Of a DNA stretch of 64,000 nt, positions 1,409-41,323 are shown piece by piece (position 1 is the first letter of the stretch; each line of letters opens with the position of its first letter). A program made the position numbers and the translations under genes. The notes under the pieces are model-generated. The model did not search any database and was not told where the DNA came from. It saw only the letters and a list, made by a program, of their open reading frames with translations. Source of the stretch: a virus; the IMG/VR virus record IMGVR_UViG_3300017527_000160, positions 1 through 64,000 of that record, one strand, 5' to 3'.

Positions 1409-1435
1409 TTGTCAAACATATAAAAAACCAACATT

Positions 1436-2268: not shown

Positions 2269-2664
2269 ATGTCAGAAGAAAACCAACAAGATTCTGCTCA
2301 GAAGGAATACTCCGAAGAAGAGCTCGCAAAGATGCGCGACAAGATGACTAAGTTCTATAAGGACGAAGCTAAGCATCTACAACCCCAAGCAGCATACTAT
2401 AGACTCCTAGCTGAGATCGAAGAGAACAAAGTTCGTAGATATTCTGCGATGGCTCAAGGTGCTCACATGTATGCTCAAGCTGAACAGGCTGAGAATGAAG
2501 CGAAAGCTGCAATGACTCAAGCTAAAGCTAAAGCAGAAGCAGAAGCAGCTGCAAAAGAGAATGGTAAAGTACCACCAAATGCGCCTGGTGATGCAGAACC
2601 AAAGGCAAAACCTACACCTCCTGCAATGGCTGAGAAAGCTCCACGTAAACTTAAAAAAGACTAA
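2269..2664 (+). CDS. Hypothetical helical protein with Ala/Lys/Pro-rich tail
   Basis: ATG 2269 preferred over TTG 2242, which lies inside the promoter. Confidence 0.75.
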   Translation: MSEENQQDSAQKEYSEEELAKMRDKMTKFYKDEAKHLQPQAAYYRLLAEIEENKVRRYSAMAQGAHMYAQAEQAENEAKAAMTQAKAKAEAEAAAKENGKVPPNAPGDAEPKAKPTPPAMAEKAPRKLKKD

Positions 2665-2665
2665 G

Positions 2666-3559
2666 ATGGTATATAAGAAAGGAAGTACAGGAAGGATGGT
2701 AAAAGCGATTCAAGAAACGCTAGGTTTACCTATAGACGGGCAATTCGGACCCAAGACTGAAGCTGCTGTTGTAGCATGGCAGATGGATCACAACTTAGTT
2801 GCTGATGGTATCGTAGGAAAGAAGACACTTGAGGAAATGGGTATCTTAGATACTGATATGAAGAAAGCATCTTTACGTTTAGCAAATGGTCTAAACATTC
2901 AGCAGGAGTTTCTTCCTAAAGGAGAATACATACAGAACGACCAACCTATTTTAAATGACTATGTGTTTATACATCATACGTCTGGTTGGAATAACCCGTT
3001 CAAAGTAATCAACTCTTGGGGTAGAGATGACCGTGGTAGAATCGCTACTGAGTTCGTCATTGGTGGACAGAACGTTAAGAATAACAATGATGACCATGAT
3101 GGTGTCACTGTTCAAGCATTCCCTGAAGGGTGTCAAGGTTGGCATCTAGGTCCAACTGGTTCAAGATACATGAATAGACATTCTGTAGGGATAGAGCTAT
3201 GCGCTTTCGGTTATCTTACTGATGACGGTAAGACTTACACGGGAACTACGGCTCACCAGGATCAGATCGTAGAATTAGCTGAGATTTTCCATAAACATGC
3301 TAAGTGGCATAAGTATTCGGATAAGCAACTGTATAGTCTTAAACGATTGTTACAGTACATAGCTTCTCGTGACAGTATTGATTTACAAGAAGGTTTAGTT
3401 AAGTGGATTCATAAGATGGGTGCTACGAAAGCATTCGGTTTCCAACAAGATGCTTATGAAGGAAAGGTAAAAGGTTTATTAACTCACACTAATGTTAGGA
3501 AGGATAAGACAGATTGCTTTCCACAACAGGAGTTAATAGATATGTTGTTAAGTCTGTAA
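2666..3559 (+). CDS. Endolysin: peptidoglycan-binding domain plus N-acetylmuramoyl-L-alanine amidase (Amidase_2-like)
   Basis: PG-binding repeats (DGQFGPKTEAAV, DGIVGKKT); Zn-amidase motifs IHHT, GWH, GIEL, LTH..RKDKTDC. ATG 2666 follows the upstream stop. Confidence 0.88.
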   Translation: MVYKKGSTGRMVKAIQETLGLPIDGQFGPKTEAAVVAWQMDHNLVADGIVGKKTLEEMGILDTDMKKASLRLANGLNIQQEFLPKGEYIQNDQPILNDYVFIHHTSGWNNPFKVINSWGRDDRGRIATEFVIGGQNVKNNNDDHDGVTVQAFPEGCQGWHLGPTGSRYMNRHSVGIELCAFGYLTDDGKTYTGTTAHQDQIVELAEIFHKHAKWHKYSDKQLYSLKRLLQYIASRDSIDLQEGLVKWIHKMGATKAFGFQQDAYEGKVKGLLTHTNVRKDKTDCFPQQELIDMLLSL

Positions 3560-3571
3560 AACCAACATAAA

Positions 3572-5682: not shown

Positions 5683-6194
5683 TAAAGTTACTAGATATCC
5701 AGAACAAGGTTGTTATACCTACAGAGCATTGTCAAACTATCAAATGGCTCAAAGTCATACAGGATAAGTTTCCAGATGACTACATGAAATTATATGCTTA
5801 CATTTTCTACATGGCATGTCCTGGAGAAGCTAATCCTTACTTCAACCTTGTAATGGATCTTCGAGAGGAGACAGTGATCCAAGACATCGAAGTTAACAGA
5901 GATTTATTAGAAGAAGATGAAGTGATAGAGGCTGTGGAAAAAGCAACTAAGCTTTATGAAACACCTACTGTACGAGCGTACAAAGGTATCACTACCATGT
6001 TGGATAACATCACGGAGTATATGGAAACGACGAAACCTACTGCCGGTAGGGATGGAAATCTTCCAGCTATGATACGATTGGCTAAAGATTTTGATGATAT
6101 ACGTCAGTCTTATAAAGGTGTGGCAAAAGACTTAGCCGCAGAACAAGAGTCTCAGGTTCGTGGTGGACAGAACTTAGGATATGATCAAATATAA
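5679..6194 (+). CDS. Conserved protein upstream of TerL, candidate terminase small subunit
   Basis: Helical 171-aa protein coupled to TerL (TAATG); C-terminal VRGG. Confidence 0.45.
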   Translation: MIKLLDIQNKVVIPTEHCQTIKWLKVIQDKFPDDYMKLYAYIFYMACPGEANPYFNLVMDLREETVIQDIEVNRDLLEEDEVIEAVEKATKLYETPTVRAYKGITTMLDNITEYMETTKPTAGRDGNLPAMIRLAKDFDDIRQSYKGVAKDLAAEQESQVRGGQNLGYDQI

Positions 6195-8398
6195 TGGAGA
6201 TACTAGACTTTCATAGACTGATACCTACGTACGATAACGGAACGTGGACAGAAACAGAGTTCACTGACCTGCAAGAGTTCCGTGATTTTGTTAAGAGTAC
6301 TTTTAGAGAACCCGGTAAGTATGAGTTCGATGAGACATCAGAATTATTTAATGCACAGGCCCGTCTGTTTAAATCACAAGGTGAAGCCTATTGCTTATCT
6401 GCTTTCAGAAGCAAAGACTTCATTAACTACTGGGATCTGGAGAAGCGCAAGTCTCGCGTTGGATGTATCTTCAAGAACAACGGTAAGGTTTGGTACTTAC
6501 CTCGTGACTATTATTTTTGGATTAATTTCCTTCCTATCTACGACAAGATCAAGAAAGACTTTGCCTTTGCGCAAGTATGGGATGTACAGTTACATATGGC
6601 TCTCTATGAGGAGTTAGCTGAACTTCATTACAAGCATGCGAGTATATTTAAGAAACGGCAGATAGCTTCGTCTTATTTTCACATGGGGAAACTGATCAAC
6701 AGGATCTGGTTTGAACCAGGAGCAATACTTAAGATGGGTGCATCCCTAAAGGATTTCATTAACCTTGCTGGATCTTGGAAGTTCTTGGAAGAGTACCGTG
6801 CATTTCTGAATGCGAACACTGCATGGTATCGACCGATGAATCCAGGTAAGGTATTAGAGTGGCAACAGAAGATTGAAGTAACTCAGGGTGGTAGAAAGAA
6901 AGATGTGGGTCTCAAAGGAATGATCACAGGTATGTCATTCGAGCAGAGTGATACAAAAGGTGTCGGTGGACCTTGTACAATCTTCTTCTATGAGGAGGGT
7001 GGTGTTGCAAGAACCGCTGATAAAACTTTCGAGTTTATCCGTCCTGCAATGCAAGCAGGAGATATTACCACAGGGCTGTTTATTATTGCAGGTTCTGTAG
7101 GTAAGCTTAAGGATGCTGGACCACTGAAAGACTTTACATATAATCCAGAAGCCAATGATATCTACGCAGTGGATACAGATCTTATCGATGAGAAGCGTAC
7201 TAAAGGAAAGAGCGGATTGTTTATTCCTGAACAATGGGGTATGCCTCCATATATCGATGAGCATGGTAACTCTCAAGTTGAACAAGCTCTTGCTTCACTA
7301 GAAGCTAAATTCGAGAAGTGGAAGAAAGAGTTATCACCAGAACGTTATCAGATACGTATCTCACAGCATCCTAGAAACATCAAGGAAGGATTCGCCCACA
7401 GGGAGGAGTCTAAGTTTCCAATGAGTTTAGTTACACATCAGAAACGTGAGATCGAAGAAAAGATGTATCCGTTTGAACTGATAGATCTCTCAGAAGATTT
7501 CGCAGGGAACCTTGTGGTAAAGAAGACTACTAAACCGCCTATCACTGATTTCCCAGTCAAGCCTAACATGGAGGATAAGACGGGAACCATAGTAGTATGG
7601 GAACGCCCGGGTGATAATCCTGAACATGGTGAGCATTACGCATCGATAGATCCCGTGTCAGAGGGAAAGACAACTACCTCTGATTCACTTTGTTCTATTT
7701 ATGTTTACAGGTCAGCTACTCAAGTGAAGCGTTACACTGAAGATGGTATAGAGAACTTTGTAGAGGGTGATAAGATTGTTGCTGCTTGGTGTGGTAGATT
7801 CGATGACATCAACAAGACACACGATCGCTTACGTATGATTATCGAGTGGTATAATGCACAGACCTTGATTGAGAATAACATCTCGCTGTTCATTCAGTAT
7901 ATGATCAAGATGAGAAAGCAGAAGTACTTGATCCCAAAGAACCAGGTTATATTCCTGAAGGAAGCTCAAGCAAACAAGACAGTATACCAAGACTACGGTT
8001 GGAAGAATACAGGTACTCTCTTCAAGAACCATATGCTGAACTATCTTATTGAGTGGCTTAAAGAAGTTGTTGAAGAAGACATCGATGACTTAGGTGTTAT
8101 CCAGAAGAAGCACTACGGGATTCGCAGGTTACCTGATATGATGGCATTGATTGAAATGGAACACTATGATGGTGTTGTCAATGTCGATAGATTGGTATCT
8201 TTGGCAGCGCTGATTGCGTTCGTTAAAGTACGAGAATCTAACGCTCCACGACCGGTCAAGGTAGAAAATGAAATAGGTAATGGCTTGGAAAAGTCGGAAA
8301 ATTTGTATAAATTAAAGAGTGGTGCCTTCAAGCATGTTGGGAGATCTAATAAGACTCAATCAACTAAACGTAGGTCGCCATTTAAACGTATTCGCTAG
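6194..8398 (+). CDS. terL: Terminase large subunit
   Basis: Walker A-like KKRQIASS, Walker B IFFYEEGG, RNase H-like ASIDP and IENN, C-terminal VDRLVS. Confidence 0.9.
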   Translation: MEILDFHRLIPTYDNGTWTETEFTDLQEFRDFVKSTFREPGKYEFDETSELFNAQARLFKSQGEAYCLSAFRSKDFINYWDLEKRKSRVGCIFKNNGKVWYLPRDYYFWINFLPIYDKIKKDFAFAQVWDVQLHMALYEELAELHYKHASIFKKRQIASSYFHMGKLINRIWFEPGAILKMGASLKDFINLAGSWKFLEEYRAFLNANTAWYRPMNPGKVLEWQQKIEVTQGGRKKDVGLKGMITGMSFEQSDTKGVGGPCTIFFYEEGGVARTADKTFEFIRPAMQAGDITTGLFIIAGSVGKLKDAGPLKDFTYNPEANDIYAVDTDLIDEKRTKGKSGLFIPEQWGMPPYIDEHGNSQVEQALASLEAKFEKWKKELSPERYQIRISQHPRNIKEGFAHREESKFPMSLVTHQKREIEEKMYPFELIDLSEDFAGNLVVKKTTKPPITDFPVKPNMEDKTGTIVVWERPGDNPEHGEHYASIDPVSEGKTTTSDSLCSIYVYRSATQVKRYTEDGIENFVEGDKIVAAWCGRFDDINKTHDRLRMIIEWYNAQTLIENNISLFIQYMIKMRKQKYLIPKNQVIFLKEAQANKTVYQDYGWKNTGTLFKNHMLNYLIEWLKEVVEEDIDDLGVIQKKHYGIRRLPDMMALIEMEHYDGVVNVDRLVSLAALIAFVKVRESNAPRPVKVENEIGNGLEKSENLYKLKSGAFKHVGRSNKTQSTKRRSPFKRIR
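8285..8313 (+). promoter_or_regulatory. Putative promoter embedded in the terL 3' end
   Basis: TTGGAA AAGTCGGAAAATTTGTA TAAATT aligns with the intergenic promoter family; about 85 nt upstream of the portal ATG. Confidence 0.4.
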
Positions 8399-11173
8399 AT
8401 GGAAATATATAACGCACTGGACTTAAAGTCTGGTAAAAAAACTAGAAGTAATAGGCTGTGGAATATATCACAACCTTTACAATTCCTACCTGTAGATGAG
8501 AAGGATGCCGATTGGGCTTCGTGGAATATGGATTGGCTTGAGTGGAACGGATTGAAACAACTCCGTAAGAACTCTCGAAAGCTAATGAAGAACTACAAGC
8601 TTGCTGCAGGTATTATTGATAAGCGTGATTATATCGCTGAGGATAACAACGAGATGAAAGATGTCGTTGCTCAATTAGCAGAAGATAGCGAGATGGAATC
8701 ACTGGAGCTGAAGTTCTATCCAATCATCCCTAACGTAGTCGATACACTGACTGCCGAGTTCGCTAAAAGAAACAAGAGAGTTACATTCCGTGCAGTAGAT
8801 GAATACACGCACAATGAGATCATAACTCGTAAGAGGGAGGAGATTGAAGATGTACTCGTGAAATGGGCTGAGTCAAAGCTTATGGAAGAGATGCTTGCAC
8901 AAGGGGCTGACCCAGAGGATCCAGAGATCCAGCAAATGATGCAAGAGAAAATGTCTCCTGAAAATTTAAAGACATTACCAGAGATCCAAGATTTCTATAG
9001 TAAGGACTATGAGGTTCTTGCGGAGAAGTGGGCTTCTAAGCAACACATCATCGATGAAGAACGTTTCAGAATGGATGAGCTTGAGGAAAGAGGTTTCCGT
9101 GATAAGCTTATTACTGATAGAGAGTTCTGGCATATGCATATGATGGAGGATGACTATGAGGTTGAGTTATGGAATCCTGTACTTACATTTTATCATAAGT
9201 CACCTGATGCACGATACATATCACAAGCTAACTATGTTGGTAAAGTTGAGATGATGACTGCGGCAGATGTTATTGACAAATACGGATGGAAGATGAACGA
9301 AGACCAACTACTTGGACTTCAACAAGCTTATCCTGTATCAGCTGCGGGTTACGCTATAGGTGGACAGCAGAATGATGGTTCTTACTATGATGCTACAAAG
9401 TCACATGAATGGAATACAAACTCACCTTCTTTACAGATGCGTCAGTACTTATCTGTGAACTCACAGAATGTACATAATAGTAATGATGTTGTCGAATGGG
9501 TATTAGGTGAGTCAGAAGACTATACAGATAACACTCAGATGTTGAGAGTTACTACAGCTTACTGGAAATCACAACGAAGAATCGGTCACTTGACTAAGGT
9601 TAGTGATGGTGGTAAGGTTACGAGTGAGATCATATCTGAAGAATATAAAATAACTGACAAGCCTGTATACAATACAAGCTTGATAAAGAATAAGACTGCA
9701 CAGAACTTATTGTTTGGGGAACACATTGAATGGGTTTGGATTAACCACTCTTGGGGTGGAATTAAAATCGGTCCTAACCAACCAACGTTCATAGGTATTG
9801 AAAACAATACTGGTGTAAATCCGATATACTTAGGTATCAATCAGAATCAAATGAAGCCGTTGAAGTTTCAGTTCAAAGGAGATAATACTCAATATGGTTC
9901 TAAACTTCCGGTAGAAGGGAGAATATTTTCAGACAGGAACACGAAGTCATCGTCATTGGTTGATTCAATGAAACCTTTCCAAATAGGATTCAACATTGTG
10001 AACAATCAGATCTCAGATATCCTTATCGATGAAATAGGTACTGTAGTGATGCTTGATCAAAACGCACTACCTAAGCACTCACTTGGTGAGGATTGGGGTA
10101 AAGGGAATCTTGCTAAAGCTTATGTAGCTATGAAGGATTTCAGCATGCTTCCTTTAGATGGTTCTATAACTAATACAGAAAGCCCATTGAATGGACAACA
10201 CTTCCAGCAGTTAGATCTATCACAGACACAACGTCTGATGTCTAGGATACAATTAGCACAGTTCTTTAAGCAACAAGCTTATGAACAGGTTGGTGTTAAT
10301 GCTCAAAGAATGGGACAACAGTTAGGAGCAAATACTACAGCCACAGAAGTGGAACAAACTCAAGTAGGTTCTCATGCACAAACGGAGATGCATTTCGTTG
10401 AACATTGTGATCACTTAATGCCTAGAGTACACCAAATGAGAACTGACCTGGCACAGTGGTATCATTCTACTAAACCTTCTATTCGTTTACAACACATGAC
10501 ATCTATGGATGAGCGTGTGAACTTTGAGATGAACGGGGAAGACTTATTACTAAAAGATATCAATTGTTACTGTACAACTAAAGCTAACCACAGGAAGATG
10601 TTAGAACAGATGCAACAATTGTCTGCGAATAACAATACTACTGGGGCATCTATATATGATCTCGGTAAGATCATGCAAGCTGATTCTATGGGAACTCTTA
10701 ACAGCGCACTTAAGTCTGTTGAGATGAAGAATGAAAAAGCTAAAGCAGATGAAAGAGCACAGGCACAACAAATGCAACAAGAAGCACTTGCCATGGCTGA
10801 GAAAGAGAAACAAATGCAAATCGATCACGATGCATCAGAAGCTGAGAAAGATAGACGTAAGGATATCCTTGTGGCTGAGATCAAGGCTAGTGGATTTGGT
10901 GCTATGCAAGATATGAATGAGAATAAGCAGTCTGACTTTGTGGATAACATGGAGAAGATAAAACGTACTGAATCATATCAGGATACAACTAACATCCAGA
11001 GAAGTAAGGTTGATCAGAACCGATCGCAACATGCCGATAAGATGGGCATAAAGCGTGAGGAGATGGCATTGAAAAGAGAGCAAAACGCAACTCAATTAGC
11101 TATTGCTAAGGAGAATAAGAATAAGTATGATGCTCCGAAAAACACTGGAACAAAAGATAAGAAAAAATCATAG
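8399..11173 (+). CDS. Portal protein
   Basis: 924 aa directly after TerL; YPIIPNVVD.L..E motif, GVNAQRMGQ/TATEVEQ region, coiled-coil C-terminus. Confidence 0.85.
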   Translation: MEIYNALDLKSGKKTRSNRLWNISQPLQFLPVDEKDADWASWNMDWLEWNGLKQLRKNSRKLMKNYKLAAGIIDKRDYIAEDNNEMKDVVAQLAEDSEMESLELKFYPIIPNVVDTLTAEFAKRNKRVTFRAVDEYTHNEIITRKREEIEDVLVKWAESKLMEEMLAQGADPEDPEIQQMMQEKMSPENLKTLPEIQDFYSKDYEVLAEKWASKQHIIDEERFRMDELEERGFRDKLITDREFWHMHMMEDDYEVELWNPVLTFYHKSPDARYISQANYVGKVEMMTAADVIDKYGWKMNEDQLLGLQQAYPVSAAGYAIGGQQNDGSYYDATKSHEWNTNSPSLQMRQYLSVNSQNVHNSNDVVEWVLGESEDYTDNTQMLRVTTAYWKSQRRIGHLTKVSDGGKVTSEIISEEYKITDKPVYNTSLIKNKTAQNLLFGEHIEWVWINHSWGGIKIGPNQPTFIGIENNTGVNPIYLGINQNQMKPLKFQFKGDNTQYGSKLPVEGRIFSDRNTKSSSLVDSMKPFQIGFNIVNNQISDILIDEIGTVVMLDQNALPKHSLGEDWGKGNLAKAYVAMKDFSMLPLDGSITNTESPLNGQHFQQLDLSQTQRLMSRIQLAQFFKQQAYEQVGVNAQRMGQQLGANTTATEVEQTQVGSHAQTEMHFVEHCDHLMPRVHQMRTDLAQWYHSTKPSIRLQHMTSMDERVNFEMNGEDLLLKDINCYCTTKANHRKMLEQMQQLSANNNTTGASIYDLGKIMQADSMGTLNSALKSVEMKNEKAKADERAQAQQMQQEALAMAEKEKQMQIDHDASEAEKDRRKDILVAEIKASGFGAMQDMNENKQSDFVDNMEKIKRTESYQDTTNIQRSKVDQNRSQHADKMGIKREEMALKREQNATQLAIAKENKNKYDAPKNTGTKDKKKS

Positions 11174-11213: not shown

Positions 11214-11254
11214 CAAACTTATCATGTTTATTTTTAATAAGTTTGTTGTATATT
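11214..11254 (+). promoter_or_regulatory. Putative promoter of the scaffold/MCP operon with AAAC-N7-GTTT dyad
   Basis: CAAACTTATCATGTTTA at 11214-11230 and TATATT at 11249-11254. Confidence 0.5.
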
Positions 11255-11288
11255 AATATTAGTTAGTCAATAACAAAACCAACAATAA

Positions 11289-14375: not shown

Positions 14376-14422
14376 ATTATATTTACACTGTCAGTTAATT
14401 AACCAACTAAACCAATAAGAAA

Positions 14423-15880: not shown

Positions 15881-15906
15881 GATATGTCAGTGAGAATTGG
15901 TATATT
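15878..15906 (+). promoter_or_regulatory. Putative phage promoter TTTG-N19-TATATT
   Basis: TTTG at 15878-15881 and TATATT at 15901-15906. Confidence 0.6.
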
Positions 15907-15925
15907 ATATACATAAACCTATTGT

Positions 15926-16906: not shown

Positions 16907-16935
16907 TTTGTAGGATAACAAAAAAGAGTTATATT
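16907..16935 (+). promoter_or_regulatory. Putative phage promoter TTTG-N19-TATATT within an inverted repeat
   Basis: TTTG at 16907-16910 and TATATT at 16930-16935; TAACTCTTT / AAAGAGTTA dyad overlaps it. Confidence 0.55.
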
Positions 16936-16970
16936 ATAAGTATCTATTTATTAATTAAAACATAAAAATT

Positions 16971-18915: not shown

Positions 18916-18951
18916 CTGTCAGTTATTAACCAACTAACAAAAACCAAAATT

Positions 18952-19080
18952 ATGAATTGTCCAAATTGTAAAACGAGATTAACATGCGGGTGCCAGAAGA
19001 GAAAAGCTAAAGACGGTACTGCTTGTTGTCAATCATGTTTAGCACAGGTAGAAGCGAAAGCTGCTGCAACTAAAAAATAA
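18952..19080 (+). CDS. 42-aa Cys-rich peptide (not in ORF track)
   Basis: MNCPNCKTRLTCGCQKRKAKDGTACCQSCLAQVEAKAAATKK*; fills the gap exactly and carries the conserved leader motif. Confidence 0.75.
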   Translation: MNCPNCKTRLTCGCQKRKAKDGTACCQSCLAQVEAKAAATKK

Positions 19081-22159: not shown

Positions 22160-22189
22160 ATTGGTTAGATGAATAAAAATTTGTATATT
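22160..22189 (+). promoter_or_regulatory. Putative phage promoter (TTG-N20-TATATT)
   Basis: TTGGTT at 22161 and TATATT at 22184-22189. Confidence 0.55.
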
Positions 22190-22207
22190 ATATAATAAGA
22201 TTTTAGT

Positions 22208-24304: not shown

Positions 24305-25330
24305 ATGGCAAAATTTACAATAAACTTTACAGCTAACACTATAGGTAAGCACTTCGTAGGTTGGAGAACTTACAATGATATTGCTTTGCCTTTCCATAAT
24401 GTGGAGGTGGTTGACGTACTTGCTCCAGGAGCTCACGGTGCTGATATAGAAATAGACGGTAACGTATACTGTGCACATAGTGATATAGAATATACAGGAT
24501 ATATTGTTGCAGCATGTGAACTACAGGATCCGGATACTCTTGAGAATACAGGTATTCCTGATCCGTCAGATGATACAAACGCTAATGGTATTCCTGATGG
24601 TGCTTTCACTTGGGCTGAAACAATTTTAGAACAGACAGATCCTTGTATAGAGACAGACATCCTTTGTGAGTCTGTAGCAATCGATAGTCTTATTGTTGTT
24701 GACGATGGTACAAGTGGTTGTAGTTCAGGGACGTTCCCTTTAACTTTCACTGAAGTATCACCAGGTGATGAGATTATAGCAGCTACAGGAACAGTTACTT
24801 ATCTTGGTGGTGTAGTATCATCAACTAACATAACTGCAGGAGGTCAATATAAAGTTCCTCCAGTGGTAACAGCGTTAGGTGTTTCATGTAACAGTACTCC
24901 AGTATTTACTGCAGTAATGGTAGCTTCTTGTCCACCGTTGGACTTAACGCCATATGATTGCGCTTCACAAAATGACTTAACGGATACACCTATTTATACT
25001 ATAAACTATGGTGAGACCGTAACAATATGTGCTGATGATTCAACCCTTGGTGGTTTGTCTGATCAGTTTTTAGCTACAGCTGTAGGTAACTGCCACTGCC
25101 AAGATTGCGCAGGGGTGACTATAGATGCTTCAGGATCAGCGTCAGGTTCAGGTAAGGTCTCTTACCAAACTTGTTGGGATGGAAGTAACCTATTAGGTGA
25201 GGTGACTCTTGTGACGCAAGTAGTTGACTTCGGTAGCATAACTCAATTGGGATGCATCATCCCCGATACAATCGCTATAGATCAAGGAACATTAGATGTT
25301 GACTTCATAGTCACTTCTGGACCTTGCTAG
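24305..25330 (+). CDS. Acidic beta-rich Cys-containing virion protein
   Basis: 341 aa; ITAGGQYKVPPVVT motif seen in phage fibre/baseplate proteins. Confidence 0.65.
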   Translation: MAKFTINFTANTIGKHFVGWRTYNDIALPFHNVEVVDVLAPGAHGADIEIDGNVYCAHSDIEYTGYIVAACELQDPDTLENTGIPDPSDDTNANGIPDGAFTWAETILEQTDPCIETDILCESVAIDSLIVVDDGTSGCSSGTFPLTFTEVSPGDEIIAATGTVTYLGGVVSSTNITAGGQYKVPPVVTALGVSCNSTPVFTAVMVASCPPLDLTPYDCASQNDLTDTPIYTINYGETVTICADDSTLGGLSDQFLATAVGNCHCQDCAGVTIDASGSASGSGKVSYQTCWDGSNLLGEVTLVTQVVDFGSITQLGCIIPDTIAIDQGTLDVDFIVTSGPC

Positions 25331-25421
25331 GATTGTTTTGAAAGGTGTCATGGTTTGTTGGTTCTACTATGACTGACAACGGAGAAGCCCTTGATACTTG
25401 TTATCGAGGGCTTTTCTTTTT
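25331..25421 (+). ncRNA. Candidate small RNA or 3'-UTR RNA complementary to phage 5' leaders
   Basis: Hairpin GTCATGGT-[TTGTTGGTTCT]-ACTATGAC, then TGACAAC, then a terminator; complementary to TGTCAGTYA..AACCAAC leaders. Confidence 0.45.
25384..25421 (+). terminator. Intrinsic terminator
   Basis: GAAGCCCTTGATA / TATCGAGGGCTTT stem followed by TCTTTTT. Confidence 0.85.
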
Positions 25422-25472
25422 ATCTTGTGTTTATAAAGTTTTATCTTTACTGCTTTACACATCGAGTGTTTA

Positions 25473-25502
25473 TTTGCAAAACCGGTAAAATTTGCCTATA
25501 TT
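25473..25502 (+). promoter_or_regulatory. Putative phage promoter TTTG-N20-TATATT
   Basis: TTTG at 25473-25476 and TATATT at 25497-25502; ATG only 7 nt downstream. Confidence 0.6.
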
Positions 25503-25509
25503 ATATAGT

Positions 25510-26091
25510 ATGAAACCTGTCAAGAAACCTGATTTAAACGCACCTAGATTCCGAGAAAAAAGGATAAGTGTACTTACTTCTAATACGCTTAAAGCGTTCA
25601 AGAAGAAGTATCCTCAATATAGTGATGTAGAGTTAAAGAGGTTCAAAGAAATCATCATGACCTTCAATCAAAAGATTGTTGATGGCGTGATTGATAACAG
25701 GAATGGTGTTGAACTACCTGATGGCTTAGGTTGTATTTTTATGGGCTCATGTCCTAAACCTAAGAAAGAGAACATTGATTTCGCTAGGTCTATTGAGTTT
25801 GGACATAAGGCTACATACAGAAATTGGGATTCAGATAACAAGCTTCTGAAGATCTTTTATACGAACCATAATACTAAGTATCCGTTTCACAACAAACAGG
25901 TGTGGTCTTTCAAAGCTGTTAAGCAGTTTCGGAAAGCAGCATCTATAGCTTTCAGAGAGAACTACATGATGTATATCGAAGTAGATCCAACGGCTAAGAT
26001 CTCAGCAATGTTTGATCGTCACCGTAAGAAAGAATATATCAAGAACCTTAAACCTGTTGTACCGGACAACTACGATGAATTTAAAATGTAA
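25510..26091 (+). CDS. IHF/HU-like protein
   Basis: GVELPDGLGCIF motif in a basic protein; sits before tail tubular genes as in crAss-like phages. Confidence 0.6.
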   Translation: MKPVKKPDLNAPRFREKRISVLTSNTLKAFKKKYPQYSDVELKRFKEIIMTFNQKIVDGVIDNRNGVELPDGLGCIFMGSCPKPKKENIDFARSIEFGHKATYRNWDSDNKLLKIFYTNHNTKYPFHNKQVWSFKAVKQFRKAASIAFRENYMMYIEVDPTAKISAMFDRHRKKEYIKNLKPVVPDNYDEFKM

Positions 26092-36176: not shown

Positions 36177-36222
36177 TAAACCTCGTATATTTGACGGTTA
36201 TGTCGGAGAAATTTCTTATATT
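36177..36222 (+). promoter_or_regulatory. Putative promoter region of cargo genes
   Basis: TAAAC-N7-ATTTG dyad, TATATTTG at 36186-36193, and GTCGGAGAAATT..TATATT ending at 36222. Confidence 0.5.
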
Positions 36223-36234
36223 TAATATAATAGC

Positions 36235-41270: not shown

Positions 41271-41323
41271 ACATATGAGGTTTGGTAAACTTATATTATT
41301 TTTGACAAAGTAAAAGAAAAAAC

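Follow-up and report, generated by a model that had tools for sequence, protein, structure and literature searches.

The window analysed here is the first 64 kb (64,000 nucleotides) of a 99,915-bp IMG/VR virus record with a crAss-like layout, in which the plus strand up to 67.3 kb carries structural and giant virion genes and the replication genes lie on the minus strand thereafter. Within the plus-strand run, a gap of 179 nt separates two genes of the same orientation, g24305 and g25510, and inside this gap sits a small module (Table 1): a hairpin, a short single-stranded flank, and a strong intrinsic terminator. The minimum-free-energy fold of the plus strand consists of exactly that hairpin and that terminator (-32.2 kcal/mol, z -4.5), the latter being a stem-loop rich in G+C with a T-run behind it on the transcribed strand. 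A preliminary description of this DNA had read off the 8-bp stem with its single G·U pair, the loop, the flank, and the terminator after the stop codon of g24305; all of these coordinates and sequences hold, and the fold agrees with them. It had also placed the start of the second gene at 25511, and here it was off by one, the ATG being at 25510. Just upstream (window 25497-25512), a -10-like TATATT ends 7 nt before this ATG, so in this phage the g25510 mRNA may have little or no leader; leaders in relatives are 15-20 nt.

Few of the genes in this neighborhood come with names. When the gap and the genes on either side of it were searched as nucleotides against cultured phages, nothing matched; g24305 matches no family in PHROG or Pfam, and searches of Pfam, PHROGs, and PDB sequences gave no name for the genes that we will call targets. 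Distant matches to crAss-like capsid genes identify g12692 as the major capsid protein, and among capsids of cultured phages the best match reaches no more than 29% identity. Two proteins encoded at 6194-11173, one of terminase size (734 aa) and one of portal size (924 aa), are without a Pfam hit at E 0.01, and the lineage is therefore very divergent. Rfam offers no family at gathering score anywhere in the window; the weak hits are terminator look-alikes and, far below threshold, two-hairpin leaders.

Table 1. The module between g24305 and g25510, and the leaders to which its loop is complementary (positions in the window)
Feature	Position	Strand	Evidence and remarks
Leader of g1436	1409..1435	+	Tag 4 nt before ATG
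Leader of g3572	3544..3571	+	Tag 6 nt before ATG
Leader of g11289	11262..11288	+	Degenerate box 1 and tag; g11289 lies just upstream of the major capsid gene
Leader of g14423	14389..14422	+	Box 1, tag, and a second AAACCAA; second-best predicted duplex (-25.8 kcal/mol); tag kept in orthologues
Leader of 42-aa ORF	18917..18951	+	Box 1 two nt past the preceding stop, then tag; best predicted duplex (-26.0 kcal/mol)
42-aa Cys-rich (zinc-ribbon-like) ORF	18952-19080	+	Conserved in relatives, leader always tagged
g24305 (341 aa, Cys-rich)	24305..25330	+	ORF list; upstream gene, element in its 3' UTR
Stop codon TAG of g24305	25328-25330	+	
Hairpin 5' arm, 8-bp stem	25347..25354	+	Sequence and fold; stem covaries in relatives
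Loop, 11 nt, UUGUUGGUUCU	25355..25365	+	Candidate seed, near-invariant in relatives, its core antisense to the leader tag
Hairpin 3' arm, one G·U	25366..25373	+	Last 4 nt, with the flank, complementary to box 1
Single-stranded flank, 7 nt	25374..25380	+	Joined to the last 4 nt of the 3' arm, it complements box 1, in the nearer clade only
Intrinsic terminator, strong: 16-pair stem-loop, then T-run	25381..25422	+	Fold; 25381-25417 with its T-run; one follows the loop in 44 of 45 relatives
Promoter-like site of the next operon (g25510)	25474..25502	+	Outside the RNA, marks the end of the transcription unit; TATATTA-type motif kept in relatives

Is the hairpin something that evolution has cared about? 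Close relatives were first found by scanning IMG/VR for a two-box pattern that we describe below; single-protein searches of IMG/VR with g24305 and with g25510 gave no match, and a profile made from four g25510 homologues gave 220 relatives, of which 80 were taken. A covariance model built from 22 hairpins finds the hairpin in most of the related loci, amounting to about 50 distinct IMG/VR crAss-like contigs, always in the sense of the gene before it and with one strong copy in each of six whole genomes. Across these roughly 50 distinct sequences, the core of the loop is nearly invariant and the stem is free to vary in sequence, and the core is kept even among relatives whose flanking proteins share only 40-60% identity. 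This conservation is not chance.

The stem, for its part, covaries; the preliminary description had asked for this to be checked in related phages. Because MAFFT staggers so short a stem, pairs were counted on a stated structure. In an alignment of 50 distinct rows that had been fitted to the covariance model, 85% of the cells pair, against about 34% when the partners are slid by one or two columns, and 52 cells show double changes, against 12.6 in shuffles; in an unfitted MAFFT alignment of the nearer set, 83% pair, against 28-38%. Folded alone, 48 of 53 distinct sequences adopt the same hairpin, with modest single-sequence z-scores (mean -1.3). RNAalifold returned no consensus structure from the plain MAFFT alignment, which we attribute to the shortness of the stem and to staggered gaps. 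The family has its boundaries as well: the covariance model gave no hit in Cellulophaga phage phi14:2 or Leptolyngbya phage Lbo-JY46 (best E 0.1), and the published RNA-seq of phi14:2, a phage without the element, therefore cannot inform us about it.

The relatives also tell us which strand folds. Their stems contain 42 G·U pairs when read on the plus strand and not one A·C, and the plus strand is therefore the folding strand. This matters for an alternative that the preliminary description had raised, namely, that the element is really a minus-strand leader before a 19-codon ORF. In the window, the minus strand does read box 1, tag, and ATG in that order. Among 45 distinct relatives, however, only 13 have an ATG within 20 nt, the ORFs range from 2 to 60 codons, and no peptide is shared; every wobble in the stem would become an A·C mismatch were the minus strand the one to fold, and that strand has no promoter-like site upstream of the motif. 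We find this explanation scarcely credible and have dropped the peptide.

Position is as regular as structure. The loop, 10-13 nt long, lies 10-27 nt past the stop codon of a long ORF, and in 44 of 45 relatives a terminator hairpin with its T-run follows 41-59 nt past the loop. The element stands 8-12 nt ahead of the terminator in nearly all of them. Many relatives have an extra gene between the module and the g25510 homologue, and the module remains with the upstream operon. (In loci L132-L202 the inserted gene encodes about 400 aa, with a conserved Y-H-Y-H-N-K-F/Y-V-G motif near the C-terminus.) No conserved promoter lies upstream of the hairpin in the 45 relatives. The element therefore belongs to a 3' UTR rather than being a free-standing gene, and a discrete small RNA would need processing. 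Of the phage sRNA with an anti-leader loop proposed in the preliminary description, one part survives (a conserved plus-strand hairpin whose loop is complementary to a tag enriched at starts and changes along with it in one sub-clade), and the separate sRNA gene is not supported.

What, then, is the loop complementary to? It is the reverse complement of a leader tag, AAACCAA(C). Six genomes gave 721 predicted starts, and we counted 7-mers in the 30 nt ahead of each, taking the expectation from their frequency in coding sequence: AAACCAA stands upstream of 45 of the 721 starts, against 2.7 expected, and AACCAAC upstream of 31, against 1.2. None of the other common upstream 7-mers comes near these two in excess over expectation, and all of those others are purely A/T; the loop-sense 7-mer precedes none of the 721 starts. 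Within the window AACCAAC occurs 15 times (6.8 expected). Each phage genome has 3-6 copies of the tag 10-mer and 0-1 of the reversed control, and in five Bacteroidota MAGs that hold mis-binned relatives it occurs at only 1.2-1.6 times the reversed control. An enrichment so clear in the phages and so slight in the MAGs leads us to treat the tag, in a phage whose host is not established, as mainly a phage signal.

Six genes have a tag that ends 4-18 nt ahead of their ATG: g1436, g3572, g11289, g14423, the 42-aa ORF, and, at genome position 74324-74785, a gene on the minus strand. The leader of the capsid gene itself has no tag. In several of these leaders the tag is preceded by another word, box 1 (UGUCAGUYA), and the preliminary description was correct that the same two boxes, in the same order, stand before starts: the exact pattern occurs three times in the window (14389 and 18917 on the plus strand, 25357-25378 on the minus strand, which is the module itself read on the opposite strand) and in none of 100 shuffles. 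The weaker sites that it listed at 11262, 3544, and 1409 are there too, each ending 4-6 nt before an ATG. As a general description of the leaders, the two-part motif fares less well. Box 1 co-occurs with its complement, which lies 3' of the stem, in the window and the nearer clade only, and both are missing in G008 and G010; distant relatives keep just the match between loop and tag.

Relatives have a tripartite promoter ahead of the g11289-orthologue leader, with box 1 starting 4-18 nt past its -10 element. It may be the counterpart of a tripartite middle-promoter motif that has been reported for phi14:2 and is transcribed by host RNA polymerase (bioRxiv 10.1101/2020.03.07.982082). At 18917, box 1 comes two nt after a stop codon and no conserved promoter is present, and box 1 is for this reason best read as RNA leader and not as promoter. 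Some other features of the sequence deserve a record. A recurrent promoter-like motif, in which GTTTA is followed by a TAnnTTTG-like box and then by TATATTA, stands before several operons and is conserved in relatives (window 11220-11262, 15895-15915, 16930-16945, 22180-22200, 25474-25505 at g25510, 36215-36232, and 41290-41305); this motif, too, may be the counterpart of the one reported for phi14:2. An ORF at 2269-2664 overlaps the next, at 2561-3559, by about 100 nt; its start codon lies within a box-1-like word, and the tag forms its codons 4-6. G006, G007, and G009 are arranged in the same way. In the minus-strand module, a gap of 762 nt at 97977-98738 of the genome (L279:13977-14738) is without long ORFs.

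Complementarity can be put in terms of energy. When the module of G000 is paired with the start regions of its own genome, the five best duplexes average -23.8 kcal/mol, against -18.9 for shuffled modules, and none of 60 shuffles does as well. Own-genome duplexes are likewise stronger than those of shuffled modules in G006, G008, and G009; the excess is weak in G007 (3 of 60 shuffles as good), and in G010, which has few tagged leaders, there is no excess, 48 of 60 shuffles doing as well. In other words, the comparison with shuffled controls that the preliminary description had called for comes out in its favor in four genomes and weakly so in a fifth, and it shows no excess in the sixth. G006, G007, and G009 all have the g11289 orthologue near the top of their predicted targets, and in G000 the gene ranks fourth.

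The finding that says most comes from natural variation among the phages. In one sub-clade (L151, L155, L161, L176, L200, and G011-G013) the loop has an A where the others have a G, and in these genomes the leader of the g11289 orthologue carries tags with U at the facing position, never C. In L151 the leader complements the variant loop of the same genome over 13 nt without a mismatch, and in the canonical L182 leader and loop do so over 12 nt; between the one loop-leader pair and the other there are two double changes, C:G to U:A and A:U to U:A. Where the canonical G is present, it faces C in 12 genomes, U in 7 (a G·U pair), and A in 2. The earlier supposition that C-to-T changes in the leaders are tolerated through G-U pairing is thereby supported, U opposite the loop G being common and C opposite the loop A never seen. 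Loop and leader thus change together just as base pairing between RNAs would predict, probably in a single evolutionary event. As a matter of record, the loci L151, L155, L160, L161, L176, L179, L200, and L201 have, near position 1150, a weakened stem and a changed loop, and G011-G013 have few tagged leaders; with so few, the system may be decaying in the variant sub-clade, or may have been retargeted there.

Would something other than RNA pairing do as well? The hairpin could be an RNA site for a protein of the phage or the host (a factor for processing, stability, termination, or antitermination), with the complementarity to the tag being incidental or a matter of competition for that factor. 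An invariant loop on a covarying stem is, after all, the usual look of a hairpin bound by a protein, a post 8-12 nt before the terminator in nearly all relatives would suit one, and the scarcity of tagged leaders in genomes such as G010 is easier to accept if the leaders are beside the point. Yet such a site leaves unexplained why the loop should be the exact complement of the most enriched leader 7-mer and why loop and g11289 leader should have changed together while retaining matches of 12-13 nt, and no candidate protein has been identified; we regard this explanation as unlikely, though it is the one among the rivals that we take most seriously. The plainest rival holds that this is a second structural hairpin and nothing else, protecting the 3' end of the mRNA or aiding termination without regard to sequence. 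Two hairpins at the end of an operon are common enough, and the weak Rfam look-alikes, far below threshold, are themselves two-hairpin leaders; such a role, however, predicts the opposite of the pattern found, in which it is the loop core that is kept and the stem sequence that is free, and we think it very improbable.

The shared sequence could instead be a double-stranded DNA site, read by a regulator in either orientation, serving as an operator downstream of late promoters and at an operon boundary. The motif does occur on both strands, in relatives box 1 does follow a promoter -10 element closely, and co-variation is to be expected if the specificity of a protein drifts: the very co-variation described above would also arise from a protein that recognizes one duplex motif whichever way round it lies. 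What such a site does not account for is a covarying stem rich in G·U and free of A·C, which speaks of a folded single strand; a tag anchored to start codons (3-18 nt) and not to promoters, found also within operons right after a stop (18917); and the presence of U or C opposite the loop G together with the absence of C opposite the loop A, which are the rules of RNA pairing. The wobble asymmetry, the covarying stem, and the anchoring to start codons lead us to favor RNA over DNA and to consider an operator quite improbable. (A site for DNA inversion between the inverted copies was also considered and dropped, the leader copies being without a stem and the stem having RNA-type wobble.)

We lean, then, with modest confidence toward an antisense element borne in a 3' UTR and pairing with the leaders of virion genes, a good candidate that comes from computation. 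How might it work? Late transcription through g24305 would yield an mRNA ending at the terminator (25417), with the hairpin in its 3' UTR, and the RNA would accumulate either within that mRNA or as a processed 3' fragment of 60-70 nt. The loop would display a G/U-rich seed with the core UUGGUU, and in the cell this seed would kiss the tag AAACCAA(C), rich in C and A, in the leaders of a few virion genes, 3-18 nt ahead of their start codons. Of these genes g11289 is the clearest predicted target, the others being g14423, the 42-aa ORF at 18952, g3572, g1436, and the minus-strand gene at 74324-74785. The loop-first kissing step may be followed, here and in the nearer relatives, by a second contact, the base of the stem opening so that the end of the 3' arm and the flank can pair with box 1 near the 5' end of the leader. 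The pairing would most likely lower translation, or else alter mRNA stability, and its effect would grow as late transcripts accumulate. Repression is what we would expect because the tag sits where initiating ribosomes bind and because Bacteroides sRNAs that pair beside a start codon block initiation (PMC11697453). The tag could also be simply an unstructured, C/A-rich enhancer of translation.

The clearest target may say something about purpose. The product of g11289 is acidic and rich in Glu and Lys, and its gene lies between the portal-sized gene and the capsid gene, the slot usually taken by the scaffolding protein; a scaffold is accordingly our tentative assignment, from position. A broader proposal, which we offer as possible and rather doubtful, is that in this large, uncultured crAss-like group a C/A-rich tag replaces the Shine-Dalgarno sequence on a set of virion mRNAs and that a single late 3'-UTR hairpin, its loop reading that tag, forms with it a translational regulon internal to the phage, in which kissing RNAs set the output of the scaffold-position gene and other head genes against that of later genes. 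The absent Shine-Dalgarno motifs and the TTTG-type promoter boxes would fit a Bacteroidota host, the host itself not being established. MAGs that hold related contigs span many phyla, with Bacteroidota making up 5 of 17 (2 of them Chitinophagaceae); the samples in which the contigs occur are from freshwater. Near relatives (L280-L296) turn up in MAGs labelled Micavibrio, Clostridium, Rickettsiales, Campylobacteraceae, and Chitinophagaceae, among others, and most of these placements must be binning errors.

Why should one worry about so small a hairpin? Little is known of posttranscriptional control in crAss-like phages, and little also of how starts are selected in hosts that do without Shine-Dalgarno pairing. 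Here is a concrete and testable pair, an 11-nt loop and a leader tag of 7-10 nt, conserved across many environmental phages and changing together in one lineage. If the antisense reading is correct, the hairpin would be a new, uncatalogued RNA family, and a phage would be tuning the translation of its own structural genes by means of an antisense loop borne in a 3' UTR; the tag, moreover, may serve as a portable translation signal for Bacteroidota.

Has nature done anything like this elsewhere? The enterobacterial sRNAs derived from 3' UTRs (of the CpxQ, DapZ, SroC, and MicL type) lie between a stop codon and the intrinsic terminator of their own mRNA, a location shared by our element in 44 of the 45 relatives, and a conserved seed complementary to several start regions is shared as well, here by computation. 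The seed of the enterobacterial RNAs is a single-stranded stretch, whereas here it lies in a hairpin loop; unlike them, the element is encoded by a phage and its predicted targets are the phage's own virion genes; and the likely hosts, to our knowledge, lack Hfq, unlike the enterobacterial hosts. In the c4 antisense RNA of phages P1 and P7 (Rfam RF01695), exposed regions pair with two boxes of a leader, including the ribosome-binding region, and control one downstream gene of the same operon for immunity. Our element resembles c4 in its two-box form, a match to leaders that occurs in the window and the nearer clade, is absent in G008 and G010, and might allow pairing of that kind; here, in contrast, the predicted targets are several dispersed virion genes and the element sits at the 3' end of an operon, and the c4 covariance model does not match, C4 being absent among hits at E up to 10 within 25250-25550.

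Closer to the presumed host, GibS and FopS of Bacteroides thetaiotaomicron pair next to the start codon of an mRNA and block the initiation of translation, in bacteria that do not rely on Shine-Dalgarno pairing; one member of the GibS/FopS group is derived from a 3' UTR, and FopS, which is host-encoded, multicopy, and furnished with its own promoters, has a single-stranded 5' seed directly before its terminator (PMC11697453). Pairing beside the start codon is likewise predicted for our element, which differs from FopS in having its seed in a hairpin loop and no conserved promoter, and which gives no Rfam hit (release 15 may not include FopS). The hairpin might also bring lambda-type nut sites to mind. 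These combine a hairpin with a 5-nt loop and a linear boxA, and they are promoter-proximal, far upstream of the terminators that they override; our loop, by contrast, is 10-13 nt long and stands at the end of an operon, 8-12 nt before the terminator, with no boxA-like conserved block upstream. As for the tag, C/A-rich translational enhancers, such as the CAA repeats of the TMV omega leader, are well known, unstructured RNA being favorable to initiation, and a G-free, C/A-rich element just before the start codon is what our leaders share with them; the tag differs from the omega type in that it has a conserved antisense partner in the same genome. Taken together, these comparisons suggest that the element, while a member neither of the 3'-UTR-derived base-pairing sRNAs nor of the c4 family, would work most like the former.
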